Of a stretch of DNA of 64,000 bases, positions 12,801 through 26,709 are shown piece by piece. Source of the stretch: Candidatus Nanohaloarchaea archaeon (GTDB taxonomy: Archaea > Nanohalarchaeota > Nanosalinia > Nanosalinales > Nanosalinaceae); assembly GCA_013343275.1 (NCBI GenBank), contig CP046106.1, positions 224,001 through 288,000 on the forward strand, in the 5' to 3' direction. Below the pieces are notes generated by a model. It saw only the letters and a list, made by a program, of their open reading frames with translations. It made no database searches and was not told the origin of the DNA. Position 1 is the first letter of the stretch. Each line of letters begins with the position of its first letter. The translations under genes were made by a program, and so were the position numbers.

Positions 12801-12892
12801 TGCTTATCGGCTGCGATGAGTCAAAATCAAAGACTGAAGGGAAGGAGCCTGTGTTCTTCAGCTTCTTCTGGCAGCTGGTGGGCTTCCAGTGA
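9890..12892 (+). CDS. Large secreted acidic Cys-rich surface protein with DxDxDG Ca-binding-type motifs
   Basis: Signal peptide from MSIRKALAIALLL; DNDGDGLVD, DSDNDGTP, DADGDGAPD motifs; about 1000 aa. Confidence 0.75.
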   Translation: MSIRKALAIALLLSVLAGTISAYQFTGGSEDTGTGPPERPPQPSACLDSSDNDGDGLVDGKDSDSDNDGTPNWQEVNADGPDPGCSKPYDYDDSEANMYDLDASWIFGTRFSAPTPQDSSVFYGSELITNGSSTTVHPDTVSTSNSIIEYYVEGSSDNWGGGDKKSVEISNSENRPQGTMTGTTTTGVEGSAELIDAPYNSSSDGQCGDGIENSDENNLDCPEDYGLPDDAGTTKSTSSETLSDRFNAKVSQWNVNNANGVSVGDPNNQANNGEYLTSKNNNDDLADNIEYRFSNSGQGLVAPEAEGQKTDDISGSFPYTSDLQSGTQANAGETTDQVVQDQQWTDVPDYYLKDADGDGAPDELWMVYPEKVGETKMGSVTDYDLTGDKNVETWEVTGSEGTCSGANCSTSGSVCSSVDQGTDTKYTLESETTTTVSDSGNEQYYADSSGSYQHSKENTNLNQVSVEVTHHPGYNTETVDDDGCGGYTTTGSCTSSQGCSSGSTPVASEVSDQDIATGQTSNTITYRYEDIELHTAKVFDLNPAENPSYSPAFPTNALFEGDTFKYGTEAYSRSNIKYNAFNGDAYFAYTVDKDSKTLGNDEALTSSSYHIQVDGTAFESVRDYEKTWDVDGPEGQSDGYIAVLHRKGYLGSGQVELQGKSNRLMATEITDGNSAVDIVQPSDALGEVGLAGGCNDPFTHCIAAVDVMFRNINNWRNPKDPSVQTGSEAYPTAVTYRHDIENTNRSLGVCKMYQELDPDAAIGSNYGSNTDSPTQSSDKRCAGDTATEFWVTMEGPEIDESAISTHHLEGTADRITDCLWYGVDVPEGTVRTSGTQEYSQYELGGYSPDGEVCLAIDSSGESFTQNGKTYEETLPSNDPGDDVPYDNYDYDDDGTVEEVGGEWYDLDNKRINQYLRNNGNILVTNGDPDNASQIAYYWRQNENPSHPDFNPKGLGSGDNIGVTLEDDCGPLLIGCDESKSKTEGKEPVFFSFFWQLVGFQ

Positions 12893-15810
12893 GAAAAGCA
12901 GTTCTTGTAGCTTCCCTACTGCTTTCCCTGTTCGTAGCTCCTGCTTCAGGTCAGATGTATATGGAGGACATGTCAGGAACGCAGAGCGACTGGAGTTGCT
13001 ATACTACAGGAAGATCGCTGGATAAATGTACTACAGATGCTACCGGAAGTTACTCCACTCCAGAACAGTCGGCAAAGGCCACGGGGAGATACGAGATCTG
13101 TGGTAAAGGAGGCATAACGAAATCTTTCAATTTCTCTCGGCAGCCAAAGTATCTGAGCTTTGACTACAGAATAAGTCTAGACAGCTGGGGCAAGGGAACT
13201 ATATACATCAACGACTCCTCCGGAGTCACAGAGCTTATTGACAAGAAAAGAACAGGTTCAACCTATGATTCTGGCTGGAGAAGCGAAACATTTGTAGTCA
13301 GCTCACAGGACAAAGACTTCTCTCTCACCGCAGGAAGTATAAGCAGCTCCAGCTTCTGCGACAGCAAGCCGGAAGATAGATCATGGAAAGTATGGGTAGA
13401 CGATATCAAGGTAACATCCAGCGCAGACAAACCAAATGAACCTTCCTTCCGACAGCCAGAGGATGGAGCAACGGCAACACGCACAACAGTAGAACTCTCA
13501 ACAAGGATAACAGATCCTAACGACGACACTATGAACGTAAGTTTCCACAGAGCCGATGGCACACTGATAGAGAACGAAACGGCTCCCAGTGGAGCAACAG
13601 TCTCAGTATACTGGGGAGGTCTAAGTGATGGAGGGAGTTACAGTTGGTACATCAAAGCCTGTGATGGAACCGGCCAGTGCAGAATTACCGATACCTGGAG
13701 TTTTACTGTAGATAAGGCTGCAGAGAAAACATATACTGGAGGAGGCCTGATGGATGAAGACTATACAAAGATCGGTGAGAACAGGAGCGTAGGAAACTAC
13801 TACTTTGAGGGCTATGTTAACAAGCTGGAGGAGGCTACCAACCAGCTGGAGGATGGAATGGATACAAGTTACTACAGTCCAAGCGATTACGGTATCTGGT
13901 CGGACTCCGATGGCTCTCAGGGGAGTGCAGATCAATGGGCCATCACAAAGTACCAGAACTGGTCGATATCGAACAGAGGGATTCCATATCCTCCAGGCCC
14001 AACAGTAATCTCTCCGCAGATAAGACAGGGGGGTCTTTACCATCCAAGCTACAGCAGCGAGGGAGGAACATATTATCACAAGACCTACGGCGGGCCATAT
14101 CGAAGCGTTCCTACTAATCTAGGCGCCTTCACCTCTCCAAGTGTTTCCAAGAAGGACAAGGTAATGGGCAACTCGTTCGCTGCTGTAGCTGCACAGAACT
14201 TTACAGGTGCTTTCGGGCCTGTTCGAGAAGGTGATGGAGTATGGGTAGATCCTGATGATATACGGTCAATGAATGAATTATTGGAGGGGCCTTGGCTACA
14301 GAAACTTGTATACAATACTGACCTTACCGGTCCTGACATGGGTCTCGGCTTCAATCTTGGAGATAACCGAGGAATAAGCTATCGTTCAGGATTTGGCTCT
14401 CCAAGATCCTACGTTATGTACGGTAATGTCTACTTTGAAGGAGAAGCGGATAAAGTTGATAATGACGGAGATGGAGTTGTAGACGAGGAATGGAACAGCA
14501 ATGGAACAGTCGGTGAATCCAAGCCTTATATAGAGGCCCCGATGTGTGGTGATGATCAATACGAATACCTGCTTGAAGAGCTAGGAGAGTCAAAGAGATC
14601 GGTAGCAGGAGATGGAAAGTATGCCTGTACTGATTCACAGAACGTCTGTATAGATATGAGTGCGGAAGGAAGTAAGGTATTCGGCCTAGGAGTTTACCGG
14701 CAGACAGATGAGCCTGATGAAGCCTTCGGGAGATCCAAGCTTGATAAGGAGGCCTGTGCAGTGATAGGCACCGATACAGTTGCTAAGTGGTATGATCAGG
14801 ACTTCAAACAGAGGCTGTGCCGCGACAACACTCTCTACGGTAATAGCGGCGTAAGATGGTTCTCGGAAAGTGAGATCGCACAGCACCCAGCAGCGTTCAA
14901 AGGAGGAATAGACGACGACTTCAACGAATTTATAGAGGAAAACAGGGCGCTGGAAGGAACAACCTCGCAAAACCTCCAGTCAGATCCTACAAGAACCTAC
15001 ACATCTTCCAGCAGCCTGGGCCAGTACAGTCCCGTACCGACAGGTAATGCGGATCAGAGAAACGGTGTCTCAAATACTACAATAGCAACACCTGGCTTCT
15101 GTGGTGGAGATGACTCATCAGAATACCTGGTAACGCAGGAAGGCGTAACGAGTCTCATTCAGACCAACAACTCCATCATAGGAGTTGCTTCACAGCCGGG
15201 CGCATGTATACTTGATGGAGCCAAGTATCCTGAAGTTTCCAGCGACAAAAGGGAGCTTTACAGTCCTGGAGCGCAGATAGAGTTCGATCTCGGAAGCGAT
15301 ACCAAGATGATATCATGTTACGGCGGAGCCTGGTACCAGAAATGGCCTGTAGTATTCAGAAAAGATACTGTAGATGTGCCTCTAGGAACCTCTCGACTAG
15401 CACAGTTCAAGGTAATCAACGTGGAGACAGAGGCAAAAACCTTCAATATCGAGCTTAAGGACGACAGCTCCAGTAACTGGAACAACGCATGGTCATACCT
15501 ATCCCAGGAAGATGCCACAAGATCCGATACAGTAACAGCGACTATAGGCGCTCAGTCATCCAGGACATACACAGTTAAACTCTACGGAGGGAACTCAAAC
15601 GTAGACAACGCACAGATCACGGTAAGAGCTGCCTCAGCAGATGGCACAATATCCGGTGACGACAGCATCCGAATTGATGTAACAAAGGCCCCTAACTCCA
15701 CGCAGACCGGAGCGACTTCCAGCAACGCAGTACCCGGAATAGGCCTACCACAGATAGTAGTGCTGCTTATGCTATCCTCAACAATGTTCCTCTACTGGAA
15801 CAAACCGTAA
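12889..15810 (+). CDS. Large secreted surface protein with Ig/FN3-like domain and C-terminal PGF-CTERM-like anchor
   Basis: Signal peptide; GTGA overlap with upstream gene; CGDD..EYL repeats; C-terminal VPGIG followed by a TM helix. Confidence 0.75.
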   Translation: MRKAVLVASLLLSLFVAPASGQMYMEDMSGTQSDWSCYTTGRSLDKCTTDATGSYSTPEQSAKATGRYEICGKGGITKSFNFSRQPKYLSFDYRISLDSWGKGTIYINDSSGVTELIDKKRTGSTYDSGWRSETFVVSSQDKDFSLTAGSISSSSFCDSKPEDRSWKVWVDDIKVTSSADKPNEPSFRQPEDGATATRTTVELSTRITDPNDDTMNVSFHRADGTLIENETAPSGATVSVYWGGLSDGGSYSWYIKACDGTGQCRITDTWSFTVDKAAEKTYTGGGLMDEDYTKIGENRSVGNYYFEGYVNKLEEATNQLEDGMDTSYYSPSDYGIWSDSDGSQGSADQWAITKYQNWSISNRGIPYPPGPTVISPQIRQGGLYHPSYSSEGGTYYHKTYGGPYRSVPTNLGAFTSPSVSKKDKVMGNSFAAVAAQNFTGAFGPVREGDGVWVDPDDIRSMNELLEGPWLQKLVYNTDLTGPDMGLGFNLGDNRGISYRSGFGSPRSYVMYGNVYFEGEADKVDNDGDGVVDEEWNSNGTVGESKPYIEAPMCGDDQYEYLLEELGESKRSVAGDGKYACTDSQNVCIDMSAEGSKVFGLGVYRQTDEPDEAFGRSKLDKEACAVIGTDTVAKWYDQDFKQRLCRDNTLYGNSGVRWFSESEIAQHPAAFKGGIDDDFNEFIEENRALEGTTSQNLQSDPTRTYTSSSSLGQYSPVPTGNADQRNGVSNTTIATPGFCGGDDSSEYLVTQEGVTSLIQTNNSIIGVASQPGACILDGAKYPEVSSDKRELYSPGAQIEFDLGSDTKMISCYGGAWYQKWPVVFRKDTVDVPLGTSRLAQFKVINVETEAKTFNIELKDDSSSNWNNAWSYLSQEDATRSDTVTATIGAQSSRTYTVKLYGGNSNVDNAQITVRAASADGTISGDDSIRIDVTKAPNSTQTGATSSNAVPGIGLPQIVVLLMLSSTMFLYWNKP

Positions 15811-15842
15811 ACTATTTCAAAATTCTCTTTCTCTTTTACTGT

Positions 15843-15896
15843 ATGAACGGTGGCTACGTTCCGCAGCTTCCTCAACAAAGCTGCATTGCAGGATAA
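15843..15896 (+). CDS. uORF1, putative leader peptide MNGGYVPQLPQQSCIAG
   Basis: Hand translation ATG AAC GGT GGC TAC GTT CCG...GGA TAA; shares GGYVP with uORF2; 2 Pro codons. Confidence 0.6.
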   Translation: MNGGYVPQLPQQSCIAG

Positions 15897-15951
15897 ACAG
15901 TATTCTCAACATTTCCTTAGCCACTGCTCTACCCATTCTAACGTGATTTCT

Positions 15952-16017
15952 ATGACACAATCAACCAAAGGTGGATATGTTCCACACGACTGGTTACGCT
16001 CAGTCGACACGCAATAA
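15952..16017 (+). CDS. uORF2, putative leader peptide MTQSTKGGYVPHDWLRSVDTQ
   Basis: GGT GGA TAT GTT CCA; differs from the uORF1 motif only at three synonymous third positions. Confidence 0.62.
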   Translation: MTQSTKGGYVPHDWLRSVDTQ

Positions 16018-16037
16018 TGCGTTCAGAAGAACGCATT
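16016..16037 (+). promoter_or_regulatory. Perfect 9-bp RNA hairpin covering the uORF2 stop/uORF3 start
   Basis: AATGCGTTC-AGAA-GAACGCATT. Confidence 0.6.
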
Positions 16038-16097
16038 CAAACACAACTCAAAACCTTTCAACAGAAAAATTCTCAGGCCGGTCGCTATGAAACGTAG
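16017..16097 (+). CDS. uORF3 (MRSEERIQTQLKTFQQKNSQAGRYET), overlapping the ProRS2 start out of frame
   Basis: TAATG coupling with uORF2; stop TAG at 16095-16097 lies inside the ProRS2 ORF. Confidence 0.4.
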   Translation: MRSEERIQTQLKTFQQKNSQAGRYET

Positions 16098-17313
16098 CGA
16101 ACTATTTGCCACAACCTCCAAGGAATCGGAGGCTGAGTTCGACTGCCGCAGTGCAGAACTTGCCGTAAAGGCCGGGCTGGTCCACAACTATGGTTCCGGA
16201 ACTTTCGGATTCACACACCTGGGCCGGAAAGTACTGGACAATATAGAAGAAGTAATCAGGGATGAGATGGACGAGATAGGCCAGGAAGTGACGATGAACA
16301 TCCTGCAGAACTCGGAGATGTGGGAGAAGTCCGGGAGGTGGAAGAACTTTGAGGGAGACGAGTTCTTCACACTGAAGAACCGTGACAACAGAGATTTCAC
16401 GATCGCGGCGACGCATGAAGAAGCCTCTGTCGAACTTGTCCGGAAGAAGATTCGATCCTACAGAGACCTGGACTTCATCATCTACCAGATAGGTCGAAAG
16501 TTCAGAGACGACAGAGCCAGGAAAGGCCTTCTGCGTGGGAAAGAGTTCTTCATGAAGGATGCCTACAGCTTCCACGCCGACAGAGAGCAACTTCAGGAAA
16601 CCTACCATGAAATGATTGAGGCCTACACCACGATCTTCGAGAAACTAGGCCTTGAATTTTCCAGAGTCTCCGCTGAAAACGGTTCAATGGGAGGCAGTCA
16701 GAGCCATGAGTTCATGGCTGAATCAGAGATCGGTAGCGACACATACCTCAAATGCGTGGATTCGGAGTGCAGATACGGCGCCAAAGATCTGGGTGAAGAG
16801 AAATGCCGTGAATGTGGCTCTGAACTTCAGGATGTCAGCGGCATCGAGATAGGCCATCTGTTCAAGCTTGGCAAAAGATACAGCTCCAAAATGGATCTGA
16901 CATTTACCGATGAAGATGGAGAGGAGAAAGATGTCATCATGGCCTCCTACGGAATCGGTGTATCAAGGCTGATCGCAGCAATAATCGAGCAGAACAACGA
17001 TGAAAACGGCATCACCTGGAACAGTAAGGTGTCTGCCTTTGACTGCTCGATCATCATTGCAAGACATGAAGATGCGGCAGTTGAAAAGGCGGAAGAGCTG
17101 CACGATAAACTTTCCGAAAGAGGCCTTGAAGTCCTGCTCTTCGATGAAGGATCTGTCGGTGAGAAGTTCGCTGAGTCCGATCTAATGGGGATCAAACGGA
17201 AGGTCATATTGGGGAATAACTACCTGGAGAACGATGTGATTGAGGTAGAGAAGAGGGATGGACGAACCTTCCAGGCCGACTTTGAGGAGATTAAGGAGGT
17301 GGTATCCTCCTGA
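16087..17313 (+). CDS. proS: Bacterial-type prolyl-tRNA synthetase paralog (short form without full INS domain), contains no proline
   Basis: ATHEE, YQIGRKFRD..R.GLLRGKEFFMKDAYSFH (motif 2), GIEIGHLFKLG, MASYGIGVSR (motif 3), anticodon-binding domain. Confidence 0.9.
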   Translation: MKRSELFATTSKESEAEFDCRSAELAVKAGLVHNYGSGTFGFTHLGRKVLDNIEEVIRDEMDEIGQEVTMNILQNSEMWEKSGRWKNFEGDEFFTLKNRDNRDFTIAATHEEASVELVRKKIRSYRDLDFIIYQIGRKFRDDRARKGLLRGKEFFMKDAYSFHADREQLQETYHEMIEAYTTIFEKLGLEFSRVSAENGSMGGSQSHEFMAESEIGSDTYLKCVDSECRYGAKDLGEEKCRECGSELQDVSGIEIGHLFKLGKRYSSKMDLTFTDEDGEEKDVIMASYGIGVSRLIAAIIEQNNDENGITWNSKVSAFDCSIIIARHEDAAVEKAEELHDKLSERGLEVLLFDEGSVGEKFAESDLMGIKRKVILGNNYLENDVIEVEKRDGRTFQADFEEIKEVVSS

Positions 17314-17316
17314 AAT

Positions 17317-18051
17317 TTATTCAATTTCTATATGCCTGGTATGGTTACATTCCTCGCATTGGACCTCTATTTTACCGTACCTAGTTTTAGATCCGATCGT
17401 GGTCAGACCTGAGTATTTGAACTTGCTGTTGTGCCTGTCGTTTTTGAAGTACCACTCGTTTCCACAGGCCGGGCAGTTCATCTCGACTTCTGTCGCCCTT
17501 CTCTCCGTTCTTTCCTTGTGCCTTTTCTTTTCCTCTTTTTTCTTCTCCTTTCTTTTCTTTTCCTTGAACTCTTCGGTTTTGTTTATGGATTCGCCTTTAC
17601 TGAAGCTGGAGGGATACTTTTTCTGGGCTTTTTTACTGTGTTTTCTCCCGTTTCCATAGACTAGGAAACCTAAGAGTCCACTTGCTCCTGCTATAGGTAT
17701 CCAGAGTATCCACATCAGGATAGGGTGAAGGCCGCTTAACGCGAATCCTGAAAGTACAGGTCCTCCGATACCGATTCCGGCTGCCTGTTTCTTTCTTTTC
17801 TCGCCGTGTTCTCTTTTCTCCTTTCCAGGATCCGAACCGCATTCAGGACATTCATTCAGGTCTGCATCAATAATTTCGCCACATTCCTCACATGCTGCTT
17901 TCCTTACTGTCCCGCATGAACTGCATTTTCTATCTCCATCATCGAACCGTTCGCTGCATTCCGGGCAGAAAAGCCGTTTCTGACCGCAGAAAGAACAGAA
18001 CCATTCATCGTCTCCTATCTCTTCATCGCAGTTACTTGATCCATAACACAT
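17317..18051 (-). CDS. Zinc-ribbon (double zinc ribbon-like) membrane protein
   Basis: Multiple CxxC pairs at the N-terminus, two TM helices, Lys/Glu-rich coil, C-terminal CPAC...CEEC. Confidence 0.7.
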   Translation of the reverse strand: MCYGSSNCDEEIGDDEWFCSFCGQKRLFCPECSERFDDGDRKCSSCGTVRKAACEECGEIIDADLNECPECGSDPGKEKREHGEKRKKQAAGIGIGGPVLSGFALSGLHPILMWILWIPIAGASGLLGFLVYGNGRKHSKKAQKKYPSSFSKGESINKTEEFKEKKRKEKKKEEKKRHKERTERRATEVEMNCPACGNEWYFKNDRHNSKFKYSGLTTIGSKTRYGKIEVQCEECNHTRHIEIE

Positions 18052-18169
18052 ATTCAGGTTAATTTTTCCTCAGCCTTATGTAGTTTTTTCAATCTAGCTG
18101 GATTTTTCAGGGAAAAAGTAACTTCCAGGCAGGCAAGAAAATTAAGAATTACTCCTCAGAACTTATTGT

Positions 18170-19648
18170 ATGAGCCAGGAACTCGGTATCACGGTAAAGA
18201 AAGATCAGAACCCTTCAGAATGGTATACGCAGGTAGTCCAGAAAGCAGAGCTAGCGGATTACGCACCTGTCAAGGGCTGCATGATAATCAAGCCGTACGG
18301 CAACAAGCTATGGGAATCAATCAAGGAAGACTTCAACTCCAAGATCACAGATACCGGGGTAGAAAACGCATACTTCCCACTATTCATACCGGAGAGCTAC
18401 CTGGAAAAAGAAGAAGATATTGTAGAAGGGTTTGATCCTGAAGTCGCATGGGTAACACATGGAGGCGACAAAGAACTGGAGGAAAGACTTGCAGTAAGGC
18501 CTACATCTGAAAGCATAATCGCACCATACATGGCTGACGAAGTAAGAAGCCACAGAGACCTGCCTCTAAGACTCAATCAGTGGGCCAACGTTGTACGCTG
18601 GGAAGCCACAGACACAAGGCCTTTCCTGAGGACCAGAGAGTTCCTCTGGCAGGAAGGACACACAGCACATGCAACAGAGGAAAGTGCTGACGAAGAGACT
18701 ATGTTGAGGCTGGAGCAGTATCAGGAAGTAATCGAAGATCACCTTGCCATTCCTTCGATCCTGGGTTACAAGCCGGAGCATGATAAGTTCCCGGGCGCCA
18801 AATACACTACAACAATCGAAACCTTGATGCCGGATGGAAAAAGTATTCAGTCGGGAACATCTCACCAGCTGGGCCAGCACTTTGCCGAGGCCTTCGAGAT
18901 AGAGTTCGAGGATGAGGACTCGGATACTCAGACTGCGTGGACGACGTCCTGGGGCCTCTCAACAAGGACGATCGGTGCTTTGATCATGGCACACGGTGAC
19001 GATGATGGCCTTAGATTGCCTCCTCGTGTTGCACCGACACAAGTGGTCGTCGTACCTATCTATCAGGAGGACAATCAGGAAGAAGTAGTTGAATACGCAG
19101 AAAAAGTGACGGAAGAGCTCGAAGCTGAAGGCCTGAGAGTAGACCTCGATGACAGAGATCACAGAACTCCTGGCTACAAGTTCAACGAATGGGAGTTGAA
19201 AGGAGTACCTCTCAGAGTAGAGATAGGGCCTAACGAAGTAGAAGACGATGCAGTTACACCTGTTAGAAGAGACAGCGGCGAGAAAAACATGGGCCAGGAC
19301 AGAGAAGAGTTCGTGGAGGAAGCCGAAGAAGTACTGGAAAACATCCAGGAATCACTTTACAACGAGTTAGAAGAGTATCTGCATGAAAATATCAGAGAGG
19401 CCGACTCGAAGAACGAGATTCTGGCGACAATAGGCAAGAACCGTGGATACGTCAAGGCCCGATGGTGCGGAAAAGAGGAATGCGAGGCCGAAGTGAAGGA
19501 CGAAGTCTCTGCCGAGATCGTAGTGCTACCGTTCCGAGAGGACTCCAAGCCTGCTACTATCCAGGCCTCCGAAGAACACATCGACGGAGAATGCGCAGTC
19601 TGCGGTGAAGAAGCCGAGAGATGGGCCTACTTTGCGAAAAATTACTGA
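18170..19648 (+). CDS. proS: Prolyl-tRNA synthetase, archaeal/eukaryotic type (housekeeping)
   Basis: AVRPTSE, NQWANVVRWE, PFLRTREFLWQEGHT, TSWGLSTR, C-terminal Zn domain ending FAKNY. Confidence 0.97.
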   Translation: MSQELGITVKKDQNPSEWYTQVVQKAELADYAPVKGCMIIKPYGNKLWESIKEDFNSKITDTGVENAYFPLFIPESYLEKEEDIVEGFDPEVAWVTHGGDKELEERLAVRPTSESIIAPYMADEVRSHRDLPLRLNQWANVVRWEATDTRPFLRTREFLWQEGHTAHATEESADEETMLRLEQYQEVIEDHLAIPSILGYKPEHDKFPGAKYTTTIETLMPDGKSIQSGTSHQLGQHFAEAFEIEFEDEDSDTQTAWTTSWGLSTRTIGALIMAHGDDDGLRLPPRVAPTQVVVVPIYQEDNQEEVVEYAEKVTEELEAEGLRVDLDDRDHRTPGYKFNEWELKGVPLRVEIGPNEVEDDAVTPVRRDSGEKNMGQDREEFVEEAEEVLENIQESLYNELEEYLHENIREADSKNEILATIGKNRGYVKARWCGKEECEAEVKDEVSAEIVVLPFREDSKPATIQASEEHIDGECAVCGEEAERWAYFAKNY

Positions 19649-26631: not shown

Positions 26632-26709
26632 TTACTTAGTCTGTAGAACGCGGCCACCCTTCTCGAGCTGGCCTTCAATAAAGCGTCCACCCGTGATTGC
26701 CTTGGACAT
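26632..26709 (-). CDS. Putative leader peptide MSKAITGGRFIEGQLEKGGRVLQTK
   Basis: TATA-like TTTTATAAAA at 26731-26740 and GGAGG just upstream; two GGR motifs. Confidence 0.5.
   Translation of the reverse strand: MSKAITGGRFIEGQLEKGGRVLQTK

Follow-up and report, generated by a model that had tools for sequence, protein, structure and literature searches.

A proline-free prolyl-tRNA synthetase behind proline-codon leader ORFs in Nanohaloarchaea, a member of an archaeal cognate-codon leader family most likely read by +1 frameshifting

The 64,000-nucleotide stretch analysed in this work (the window in all that follows) stems from a nanohaloarchaeal genome and encodes two prolyl-tRNA synthetases (ProRS), namely the archaeal-type housekeeping enzyme ProRS1 and a bacterial-type enzyme, ProRS2, which does not contain a single proline and whose gene, proS2, is preceded by two short upstream open reading frames (uORFs), each with one proline codon in a conserved core. 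The module made up of this leader and proS2 is the most elaborate member of an archaeal family of leaders that carry a codon for the amino acid handled by the downstream gene, and is most likely read by +1 frameshifting. The finding is real and strongly non-random, and all evidence for the module is comparative, drawn from sequence. On this basis the central interpretation is supported; the comparison yields a Pro-free enzyme, conserved uORFs, a match between sensor codon and gene, +1 frames that run open, conserved in phase and free of cognate codons up to start codons, and a helix, H1, within the leader.

The proline-free synthetase ProRS2

The source genome consists of a single contig of 915,886 bp, has a G+C content of 47% and an acidic proteome and is 96.5% complete; its relatives carry the label Nanohaloarchaea in public records. 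In the following, G000 denotes this genome, other G numbers denote related genomes and L numbers stand for fetched loci. The genes at the centre of the locus are these (window coordinates and strand):

16087-17313 (+): proS2, bacterial-type ProRS of 408 amino acids with 0 Pro, matching TIGR00409
17317-18051 (-): gene for a double-zinc-ribbon membrane protein (PF12773), convergent neighbour of proS2
18170-19648 (+): proS1, housekeeping archaeal-type ProRS with 24 Pro, matching TIGR00408 at 577.7 bits against a cut-off of 437

The product of proS2 passes the cut-off of TIGR00409 (proS_fam_II; 404.5 bits, cut-off 306.7), stays below that of the stricter equivalog NF006625 (445.6 versus 558) and comprises a class II core (PF00587, 3.6e-36) and an HGTP anticodon-binding domain (PF03129, 1.1e-10). 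It aligns with the ProRS of E. faecalis (2j3l) at E = 2e-87 and retains the catalytic motifs THEE, FRDD-R, MKDAYSF, GGSxSHEF, GIEIGH and YGIGVSR. Residues H110, E111, E112, R140, D141, R150, F154, D158, Y160, S161, F162, G202, G203, S206, E208, F209, E254, G256, H257, Y288, G289, G291 and R294 are invariant in 29 sequences including bacterial enzymes. While these catalytic columns stay invariant, prolines typical of the family are replaced, the one in motif 1 among them: LPxLQP has become MNILQN, (A/G)PTHEE reads AATHEE, WP is WN and APF is SAF. The INS editing domain between motifs 2 and 3 is missing, about 170 residues having given way to an insertion of about 30 residues with four Cys, a loss seen also in the sister clades from haloarchaea and, among bacteria, in some forms about 410-440 amino acids long. 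What is said here about the active site is read from alignments, and ProRS2 is predicted to be an accessory prolyl-tRNA synthetase that charges tRNA(Pro); the genome has tRNA(Pro) genes with UGG and GGG.

Proline accounts for 3.52% of the protein residues encoded by the genome and for 0 of 408 in ProRS2. Among 696 non-overlapping ORFs of at least 150 amino acids, proS2 is the only one of at least 300 amino acids that lacks any of 16 common residues. Three shorter Pro-free ORFs exist in the genome, two of them coiled-coil-like and one without family match, and no proline-sparing regulon emerged, the other Pro-poor ORFs of the genome being coiled-coil-like or without family match as well. The absence of proline is beyond chance and is a selected state, not an accident.

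The first-pass annotation of this DNA had let its proposal stand or fall with low proline content among the homologues, and 0-2 Pro are indeed found throughout a nanohaloarchaeal clade of 64. Among the 120 best homologues listed, those with 58-84% identity possess no proline or, in a handful of cases, one or two, as opposed to 15-21 in the clade that follows at about 50% identity and counts named haloarchaea among its members. A tree of 112 rows places the 64 that have 0-2 Pro on one side of a branch with an SH-aLRT of 100, and two members with a single Pro, situated in APTHEE, branch at the base of this group. The 64 full-length sequences make up a monophyletic clade in which the Pro-free state is fixed, and its sister clades have 10-21 Pro. 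With fragments included, the clade comprises 72 sequences with 8 Pro in 27,879 residues, several of the eight sitting in a mis-called N-terminus or at fragment ends; 18 sequences of the sister clade contain 298 Pro in 7,293 residues.

proS2 is an accessory gene. At E <= 1e-60 it is present in 12 of 70 genomes of the phylum, all from one family (G000 and 11 of 49), and in 0 of 20 genomes of four other families, and its occurrence is patchy inside genera. Scans of genome and of metagenome contig collections returned mostly distant bacterial ProRS and three new Pro-free loci each; no haloarchaeal ProRS2 homologue was detected in the plasmid collection. One bin, G057, holds two proS2 copies, on C9 (L102, the same as L021) and on C83 (L106, the same as L022). 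In L196 (G056:C47) a complete two-uORF leader is followed by only the C-terminal part (about 320-394) of a Pro-free ProRS2, which has the look of a deletion remnant.

Both synthetase genes, the zinc-ribbon gene, uORF1, uORF2 and the hairpin lie where the first-pass annotation had put them, and the proline counts and types that it gave for the two enzymes (bacterial-type with none, archaeal-type with 24) are borne out by counting and by NCBIfam. Adjacency to the housekeeping ProRS, named in its proposal, is no conserved feature, nor is the zinc-ribbon gene that it had listed between the two: proS2 adjoins proS1 in only two of the five genomes with both positions on record (G000 and G020), and at every one of the 13 listed loci proS2 is flanked by different genes. 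The zinc-ribbon gene is a mere neighbour outside the system. As judged from the layout, promoter, two leader ORFs and proS2 probably form a self-contained module, the leader elements of which occur a single time in the 916-kb genome.

Leader ORFs and their sensor codons

The leader of proS2 comprises the following elements, all on the plus strand where a strand is given:

15813-15822 (+): TATA-like box (TATTTCAAAA), about 26 nucleotides (nt) 5' of the uORF1 ATG
15843-15896 (+): uORF1, encoding MNGGYVPQLPQQSCIAG and ending in a stop codon; GGUGG core at 15849-15853, P-site GTT at 15858-15860, sensor Pro codon CCG at 15861-15863
15862-15981 (+): +1-frame path 1, 40 codons with 0 stops and 0 Pro, from sensor 1 into the uORF2 frame, ending at the uORF2 Val codon
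15913-15927 (+): box 3 (TTCCTTAGCCACTGC), pairing with uORF1 codons 2-5 (15845-15856) as helix H1
15943-15947 (+): Shine-Dalgarno sequence GTGAT of uORF2, within the conserved GTGATTTCTATG
15952-16017 (+): uORF2, encoding MTQSTKGGYVPHDWLRSVDTQ and ending in a stop codon; GGUGG at 15970-15974, P-site GTT at 15979-15981, sensor Pro codon CCA at 15982-15984
15970-15975 with 15981-15986 (+): hairpin H2, local, inside uORF2
15971-16090 and 16017-16097: further small ORFs
15983-16090 (+): +1-frame path 2, 35 codons with 0 Pro; its TGA (16088-16090) overlaps the proS2 ATG (16087-16089)
16016-16037 (+): variable 9-bp hairpin (AATGCGTTC-AGAA-GAACGCATT), directly 3' of the uORF2 stop
16049-16061 (+): conserved CAAAAYCTTT(C/T)AA box, about 30-40 nt 5' of proS2

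Sixteen distinct Pro-free loci with upstream DNA were available (L001-L007, L021-L023, L103-L105 and L107-L109; L101, L102 and L106 are duplicates and were not counted). uORF2 (..[T/K]-G-G-[Y/R/C]-[V/I]-P..) is present in 16 of 16, and uORF1 (M-x-[G/C]-[G/D/E]-x-[V/I]-P..) was recognised in each of the 15 that can be read at this point, L007 being masked there, so that the co-occurrence of such uORFs with a Pro-free ProRS, proposed as a check in the first-pass annotation, is complete. The two GGYVP copies differ only at third codon positions, the sensor Pro codon varies between CCG, CCA and CCT with its first two bases constant, and the distance from the uORF2 ATG to the GGT core is 18, 21 or 27 nt, indels always being in frame.

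An A/T-rich gRAAA-NN-TTTAA-like box lies about 26-30 nt 5' of the uORF1 ATG in all 15 aligned leaders, and similar A/T-rich boxes precede the other leader uORFs of the genome. Its fixed distance from the ATG suggests that the leader mRNA is leaderless, with the box as its putative promoter. The GTGAT Shine-Dalgarno sequence of uORF2 is conserved in the leader alignments and complementary to the 16S rRNA 3' end of the genome, ...GGATCACCTCC. The conserved CAAAAYCTTT(C/T)AA box resembles the box 5' of uORF1, has similar counterparts in the leaders of cysS, thrS, glyS and tyrS and is possibly a second, basal promoter internal to the leader. The hairpin after the uORF2 stop occurs in several leaders, not in all.

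Helix H1 is predicted by RNAalifold with four compensatory pairs (inverted repeat I2); 89.6% of cells pair, as opposed to 83.1 +/- 1.3 in shuffled alignments (0/500) and 29-56% when the helix is slid, figures to be read with the caution that relatedness inflates such tests. Box 3 can alternatively pair with the GGUGG of uORF2 (98%). H2 is recovered by folding and by pair count, with one-sided changes only.

A related leader precedes haloarchaeal ProRS2 genes, found in five metagenome loci (four distinct) of 64-68% G+C with 13-16 Pro in the enzyme. It has one uORF ending in ..A-R-G-[R/W]-V-P.., and the +1 frame is open to the start codon in 5/5 loci (4 distinct). Since homologues with normal proline content carry it, the leader is older than the Pro-free state. 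The first-pass annotation had regarded homologues with normal proline content and no conserved uORFs as fatal to its proposal; the nanohaloarchaeal clade is Pro-free and has the uORFs, and the haloarchaeal homologues combine normal proline content with a related leader. In these same loci (L112, L115, L116, L120 and L121) tandem CGACAGG-type repeats, up to about four copies, are located between uORF and gene, and a GGUUUUCGA-like U tract directly follows the uORF stop.

The strongest indication of what the uORFs do comes from leaders before other genes. Two models, one of covariance for the leader (R1) and one of sequence for the uORF2 core (R2), were run on related genomes and the places found were fetched and read; the source genome itself was scanned with a regular expression for M-(x)-K-G-G-[R/C]-F-X leaders, and downstream genes were verified with NCBIfam. 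A common core, K-G-G-[R/C/Y]-[V/F]-X, was found upstream of 13 gene families of known specificity, with a cognate X in 13 of 13. Apart from proS2, these are (scores versus cut-offs):

Pro sensor: proS1 in three genomes without proS2 (L206 and L212, 76% and 73% identical to the window ProRS1; L257 by ORF)
Pro sensor: proC-proB, L201 in G059 (TIGR00112 239.9 vs 196.75; TIGR01027 215 vs 186); L205 in G015 is similar
His sensor (CAC/CAT) in both uORFs: hisG plus a hisS/hisZ-like gene, L215 in G012 (TIGR00070 117.8 vs 75.75); L247 in G058 is the same by sequence
Leu sensor: leuA (611.8 vs 517)
Leu sensor: bacterial-type leuS, L254 (G019:C1, about 493117-495248; TIGR00396, 900 vs 548), with ATGA overlap
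Ser sensor: serS (230 bits; ORF truncated by the contig end)
Cys sensor: cysS in G000 (468 vs 340)
Val sensor: valS in G000 (1062.6 vs 738)
Thr sensor: thrS in G000 (642.5 vs 383.65)
Gly sensor: glyS in G000 (665.5 vs 243.3)
Tyr sensor: tyrS in G000 (404.2 vs 220)
Trp sensor in two uORFs: operon ending in trpS in G000 (280.8 vs 176.75)

The residue after the core thus changes with the regulated gene and is always cognate, a natural codon swap that supports the reading as a sensor. Together with the conservation of the uORFs it makes it very probable, on comparative grounds, that these leader ORFs sense the cognate aminoacyl-tRNA. The idea of leader peptides sensing Pro-tRNA(Pro), put forward from the window alone, is strengthened in this way as far as sensing is concerned; proline, which had been taken to be special, turns out to be one case in a genome-wide leader family.

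An independent pattern scan (ATGAARGGTGGNYGYTTY) gave 71 matches in 38 of 50 family genomes and 1 match with the reversed control. Thirty loci with 31 uORFs were fetched from it, with Ser before serS in 10/10, Gly before glyS in 8/8, Thr before thrS in 8/8 and Tyr before tyrS in 4/4; the match is cognate in 30 of 30 assignable uORFs, and one Ile leader precedes an unassigned ORF. The cognate content of the other leader-regulated aminoacyl-tRNA synthetases (aaRS) is 0.4-6.5%, that is, cognate sparing is not seen outside ProRS2.

Within G000 the uORFs outside the window are located at C1:190761(-), 451538(+), 556332(+), 583445(+), 668768(+), 581377(-) and 581129(-). They are probably leaderless, of the type M..KGG[R/C]F-X, precede cysS, valS, thrS, glyS, tyrS and the trpS operon, and X is cognate each time; every M-(x)-K-G-G-[R/C]-F-X leader of this genome sits behind a TATA-like box. 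The trpS operon consists of a 242-amino-acid ORF of unknown kind, an M20 deacylase and trpS. In L201 and L205, proC and proB form one open frame of at least 411-463 amino acids with 6-7 Pro under the Pro leader.

Many leaders, mostly of the Leu type or with tandem Val/Ile+Leu sensors, precede proteins without family match or a GATase-like or ilvA-like protein, which speaks against a uniform match between sensor and gene. Leu-type leaders had first been taken for decayed Pro leaders, a view given up since the links to leuA and leuS show at least some of them to be genuine. Leu or Val/Ile+Leu leaders lie before acidic proteins in L213, L214, L237, L243, L248-L251, L253, L255, L258, L261, L263 and others, and these proteins gave no Pfam or NCBIfam match. 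A recurring acidic family of about 475-580 amino acids behind Leu-type leaders carries ..EEFTE(D/E)F..N(Y/F)E(E/D)N(V/I)(G/A)PTGMG.. near the N-terminus, and several such loci have a TGATG or NTGA overlap with the +1 frame.

The window itself contains a second leader and a further large ORF near proS2:

26632-26709 (-): second leader, MSKAITGGRFIEGQLEKGGRVLQTK with terminal stop codon, behind a TTTTTATAAAAA box; two cores, then Ile and Leu codons
25220-26401 (-): downstream ORF of 393 amino acids without NCBIfam match; the +1 frame of the leader stops 127 nt before it
12889-15810 (+): ORF of 973 amino acids 5' of the TATA-like box, with signal-like N-terminus and hydrophobic C-terminus

The 973-amino-acid ORF has no Pfam match, and a homologue is also situated 5' of proS2 in L004. 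No tRNA genes were found within the window.

The +1 frame and the competing explanations

A conserved feature of the proS2 leaders is the +1 frame that follows each sensor. In 14 of 15 distinct leaders the +1 stop is an NTGA at the proS2 start (ATGA, GTGA or TTGA). The sensor-to-start distance is likewise divisible by three in 14 of 15, and the in-phase spacers come in 12 distinct lengths between 63 and 294 nt. Shifted by +1, uORF1 enters the uORF2 frame in 14 of 15 leaders as well, the exception being L103. Path 2 has 0 Pro in 493 codons, compared with 16 of 493 in the +2 frame, and path 1 has 2 in 494, both of them from L103, which is out of phase. In shuffled spacers an open +1 frame arises with a probability of 0.0005-0.33 per locus. 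L103, L196 and L217 possess a long acidic Pro-free +1-frame extension (..QELLDEVYSRYD..) of about 70-100 codons from sensor to gene, for which no family match was obtained.

The same arrangement recurs before other genes. In G000 the +1 stop is ATGA at cysS, thrS, glyS and proS2 and lies at -5 for valS and -10 for tyrS; in other genomes it is GTGA for proCB (L201) and ATGA for leuS, and it overlaps the start or falls within 9 nt of it for leuA, serS and the three proS1 leaders (the L205 spacer is masked). With hisG and the gene that opens the trp operon, the coding sequence itself occupies the +1 frame. In the His leaders L215 and L247 the hisG ORF follows in the +1 frame right after the sensor, with 208 open codons, so that a frameshift would fuse the leader peptide to HisG; both leaders also have an AUG in the +1 frame inside the core. 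In the pattern-scan replicate 29 of 31 +1 stops are found at -10 to +16 nt of the first start codon. Zero-frame stops lie 2-22 codons past the sensor, and no stop interrupts the +1 frame over the 20-98 codons that lead up to the start codon.

In the RNA of the core, (A)GGUGG can pair with the 16S 3' end encoded by the genome, ...GGAUCACCUCC, and ends 4 nt before the P-site codon. In most non-Pro leaders the latter is a slippery UUU, which stands before sensors starting with U, A or G and re-pairs well.

Taken from these comparisons, the leader output is likely to be a +1 frameshift coupled to the gene start. Each leader ORF would combine three elements, a conserved (K/T)-G-G-x-V core, a P-site GUU and a single Pro sensor codon. 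With ample Pro-tRNA the ribosome would decode the Pro codon and terminate a few codons on, at least 70 nt 5' of proS2; with scarce Pro-tRNA the A site would stay empty and the peptidyl-tRNA would slip by +1. The first shift, at uORF1, would carry the ribosome into the uORF2 frame and to the second sensor, and a second one, at uORF2, would take it through the Pro-free spacer to the UGA that overlaps the proS2 start (AUGA), where termination-reinitiation would hand it over to proS2. The enzyme would then be made only under shortage of Pro-tRNA(Pro). Frameshifting, its rise on starvation, the increased translation of proS2 and the leaderless mRNA are all inferred from sequence. The earlier proposal that ribosomes stalling at GGYVP switch on the synthetase thus holds up with respect to proline sensing; stalling alone is probably not the output. 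That the enzyme can be translated without any Pro-tRNA had also been proposed: neither of the +1 paths of the window nor the 408 codons of proS2 contain a Pro codon, and hence a ribosome past the two sensors could complete the enzyme without Pro-tRNA.

The same device with an exchanged sensor codon would control many other aaRS and biosynthesis genes in the family. We consider it fairly probable that Nanohaloarchaea, and for ProRS2 haloarchaea too, possess a general 'specifier codon' system read by the ribosome, with a short and mostly leaderless ORF whose end is composed of GGUGG, UUU or GUU and a cognate sensor. When the corresponding aminoacyl-tRNA runs short, a +1 shift would bring the ribosome through a spacer free of cognate codons to the start of the matching aaRS or biosynthesis gene, or directly into the gene.

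Several observations fit frameshifting poorly. In L021 a 55-nt insertion puts the leader out of phase, and its +1 frame misses the proS2 start. The P-site codon of Pro, His and Leu leaders, whose sensors start with C, is GUU, which re-pairs poorly on UUC after a +1 slip. The GGUGG core holds a GUG in the +1 frame, so that the +1 ORF of uORF2, which is led by a Shine-Dalgarno sequence, could initiate independently. Past the start codon the +2 frame is open too in about 9 of 15 proS2 leaders, so that a scarcity of stops is not confined to +1. In two G000 leaders that precede genes of unknown kind the +1 stop falls about 100-127 nt short of the gene, the covarying helix H1 lacks a clear role in a frameshift mechanism, and the loci are related, so that counts overstate their independence. 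The haloarchaeal leaders, with R-G-[R/W]-V-P and an open +1 frame, are without GGUGG; pairing with rRNA may therefore be dispensable, and the nascent peptide may be the conserved stimulator. Finally, a ProRS is unable to relieve a true lack of proline.

This last point bears on the physiology of the module. The genome, although 96.5% complete, gave no match to proC or OCD and only a weak match to proB below the cut-off, from which it follows that the cell must import proline. No leader is found at proS1 in the five proS2-bearing genomes with the proS1 position on record (G000, G005, G020, G021 and G022), the R1 and R2 models giving no match in 18052-18169 before proS1 of the window; a Pro leader precedes proS1 in three genomes without proS2 (G004, G007 and G023), and many other genomes have neither. 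The strict absence of proline argues for conditions under which Pro-tRNA is almost gone. Starvation, met by a scavenging enzyme, and inhibition, met by a resistant bacterial-type copy, may both fit.

It is conceivable, if somewhat doubtful, that the same leader serves resistance, with proS2 providing a copy that withstands a natural inhibitor or a proline analogue active against the housekeeping enzyme of archaeal type. The gene would then have to be Pro-free since, with ProRS1 blocked, no Pro codon could be read. Inducible resistant aaRS paralogues occur in bacteria, and a number of properties would suit such a role: the proline content is strictly zero and not merely low, suggesting near-total loss of Pro-tRNA, the enzyme is of a type unlike the housekeeping one, the gene is accessory and patchy (12/70 genomes, within single genera) with varying neighbours, as is often the case for resistance paralogues, and an extra ProRS is no cure for true lack of proline. 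On the other hand, no inhibitor is known for the habitat, the same leaders on ordinary housekeeping aaRS and biosynthesis genes point to supply sensing, and with recognised proline biosynthesis missing starvation is plausible, in which case a scavenging enzyme with low Km would help too.

Classical attenuation without recoding, in which a stalled ribosome alters RNA folding or transcription termination, appears unlikely as the output of the leader. It could work through the pairings of the uORF1 core with box 3, of box 3 with the uORF2 core and of H2, or through termination at a U-rich tract, possibly with the help of an archaeal termination factor. The covariation of H1 would find an explanation, as would the ability of box 3 to pair with either core in a 1:2 / 2:3 / 3:4 layout like that of bacterial attenuators, and the U-rich tracts after the uORFs; the match between sensor and gene is accommodated as well as by frameshifting. 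What attenuation leaves unexplained is the open, in-phase, cognate-free +1 frame up to NUGA. Moreover, there is no conserved hairpin-plus-U terminator, and the single-uORF leaders of thrS, glyS and tyrS have no equivalent of box 3. Simple sequestration of the proS2 ribosome-binding site was set aside as the main output, because masking the footprints of stalled ribosomes as single-stranded left its predicted accessibility unchanged (mean 0.37 versus 0.35-0.37 in 14 leaders).

Quite improbable is an overlapping +1 ORF that starts on its own, at the GUG in GGUGG or a nearby AUG, and is coupled to proS2, the zero-frame uORF modulating it by occupancy. The GUG of the core is invariant and in the +1 frame, the hisG leaders have their +1-frame AUG inside the core, and +1 ORFs terminate on start codons, all as this arrangement would have it. 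Yet the leaderless MKGG[R/C]F-X leaders have their GUG 7 nt from the presumed 5' end and no ribosome-binding site, and a ribosome stalled at the sensor would cover the GUG, so that starvation would weaken the coupling, a response in the wrong direction. The identity of the uORF1 +1 frame with the uORF2 frame (14/15) would be without a role, and a cognate-free +1 path implies translation during shortage. It is highly improbable that the motif acts without being translated, as an RNA that senses tRNA in the manner of a T-box or as a protein-binding site such as a ProRS operator, with coincidental small ORFs: GGUGG and GUU are conserved at the nucleotide level, third positions included, and hairpin H2 is present, but ATG starts and frames are kept across indels, the third position of the Pro codon is free, the in-frame codon after the core tracks the gene in 13/13 families, and no Rfam family, T-box included (RF00230), reaches its gathering score anywhere in the 64-kb window. 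A T-box-like UGGN bulge, a mimic of the tRNA(Pro) anticodon and a ThrRS-type operator were likewise considered and dropped, the frame-dependent codon swap fitting the data better.

Related systems and significance

The closest likeness of the candidate frameshift device is to prfB, the gene for RF2, where, as described in portions of Atkins et al. (2016, PMC5009743), a +1 frameshift also involves a short zero-frame ORF, an internal Shine-Dalgarno-like stimulator situated a few nucleotides 5' of the shift codon and a slow A-site codon as the sensor. In both cases the +1 frame would be the useful outcome, hisG and the first protein of the trp operon being read in it here. Unlike in prfB, the sensor is a sense codon for an amino acid and not UGA, aminoacyl-tRNA and not a release factor would be sensed, and the shifted ribosome, as deduced from sequence, would mostly be delivered to an overlapping start codon instead of making a product; two serial sensors before proS2 and the archaeal host are further differences.

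With the leaders of trpL, hisL, pheST and actinobacterial aaRS the archaeal ones share a short upstream ORF with cognate codons, the reading of charged tRNA via the progress of the ribosome and alternative pairings. They differ from these bacterial attenuators in usually having one sensor codon, not a run, inside a conserved core (K-G-G-x-V/F), in the lack of a conserved hairpin-plus-U terminator, in probably leaderless mRNAs and in the open +1 frame to the start codon. The logic is that of T-box riboswitches, where the amino acid to which a shared leader of aaRS and biosynthesis genes responds depends, throughout a genome, on a single exchangeable specifier codon; a T-box, however, is an untranslated RNA that binds uncharged tRNA, whereas here the ribosome would read the codon.

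The shift in the ermC leader is drug-induced, goes in the -1 direction and acts by unfolding a structure, whereas the trigger here would be the natural supply of cognate aminoacyl-tRNA. The likeness is that shifted ribosomes run from the leader ORF into the spacer and thereby activate the downstream gene, as parts of Atkins et al. (2016, PMC5009743) describe for ermC under ketolides, where frameshifted ribosomes enter the intergenic spacer; frameshifting in pheL is judged incidental in the same parts of that paper. Leaderless short ORFs at the 5' end that serve as amino-acid-responsive attenuators are also represented by the polycysteine uORFs of mycobacteria (bioRxiv 10.1101/834739), which are runs of Cys codons and whose abstract mentions no conserved core, frameshift layout or aaRS regulon.

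The depletion of ProRS2 in proline has its own precedents. Proteins required under scarcity of a nutrient, be it a cognate residue or an element, are depleted in it. Compared with such sparing, the present case is total (0/408) and includes otherwise invariant active-site and motif-1 prolines; the amino acid spared is that of the synthetase itself, and the sparing reaches into the path predicted to be translated in the leader.

A full-text literature search, most subscription journals lying outside it, brought to light neither a Pro-free ProRS nor leaders of this kind; nor did it yield leader-peptide control in archaea or an aaRS under hungry-codon frameshifting. The remark in the first-pass annotation that no description of such a system was known is in keeping with this outcome. 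In the portion of the Haloferax small-proteome paper concerned with them, small ORFs in 5' untranslated regions are merely remarked upon as reminiscent of leader peptides.

If correct, the interpretation presented here would make this the first natural regulon that senses amino acids by hungry-codon frameshifting and also, among archaea, the first described case of control by a leader peptide. Should the frameshift hold, hungry-codon frameshifting, so far mostly viewed as an error, would acquire a physiological role. To our knowledge archaea have no T-boxes, and how their aaRS and biosynthesis genes are adjusted to the supply of charged tRNA is largely unknown. The leader family offers a concrete and testable answer, in which swapping the codon should swap the specificity, and could become a tool for synthetic biology, a compact and programmable amino-acid sensor.

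Any aaRS depends on its own product for its translation, and a Pro-free ProRS behind a Pro-free leader path shows that selection has addressed this circularity. A cascade of two sensors before a synthetase purged of its own residue would remove the need for Pro-tRNA in making the maker of Pro-tRNA. For an auxotrophic, nano-sized symbiont such a module would be a way to cope with an interrupted supply of amino acids from its host.

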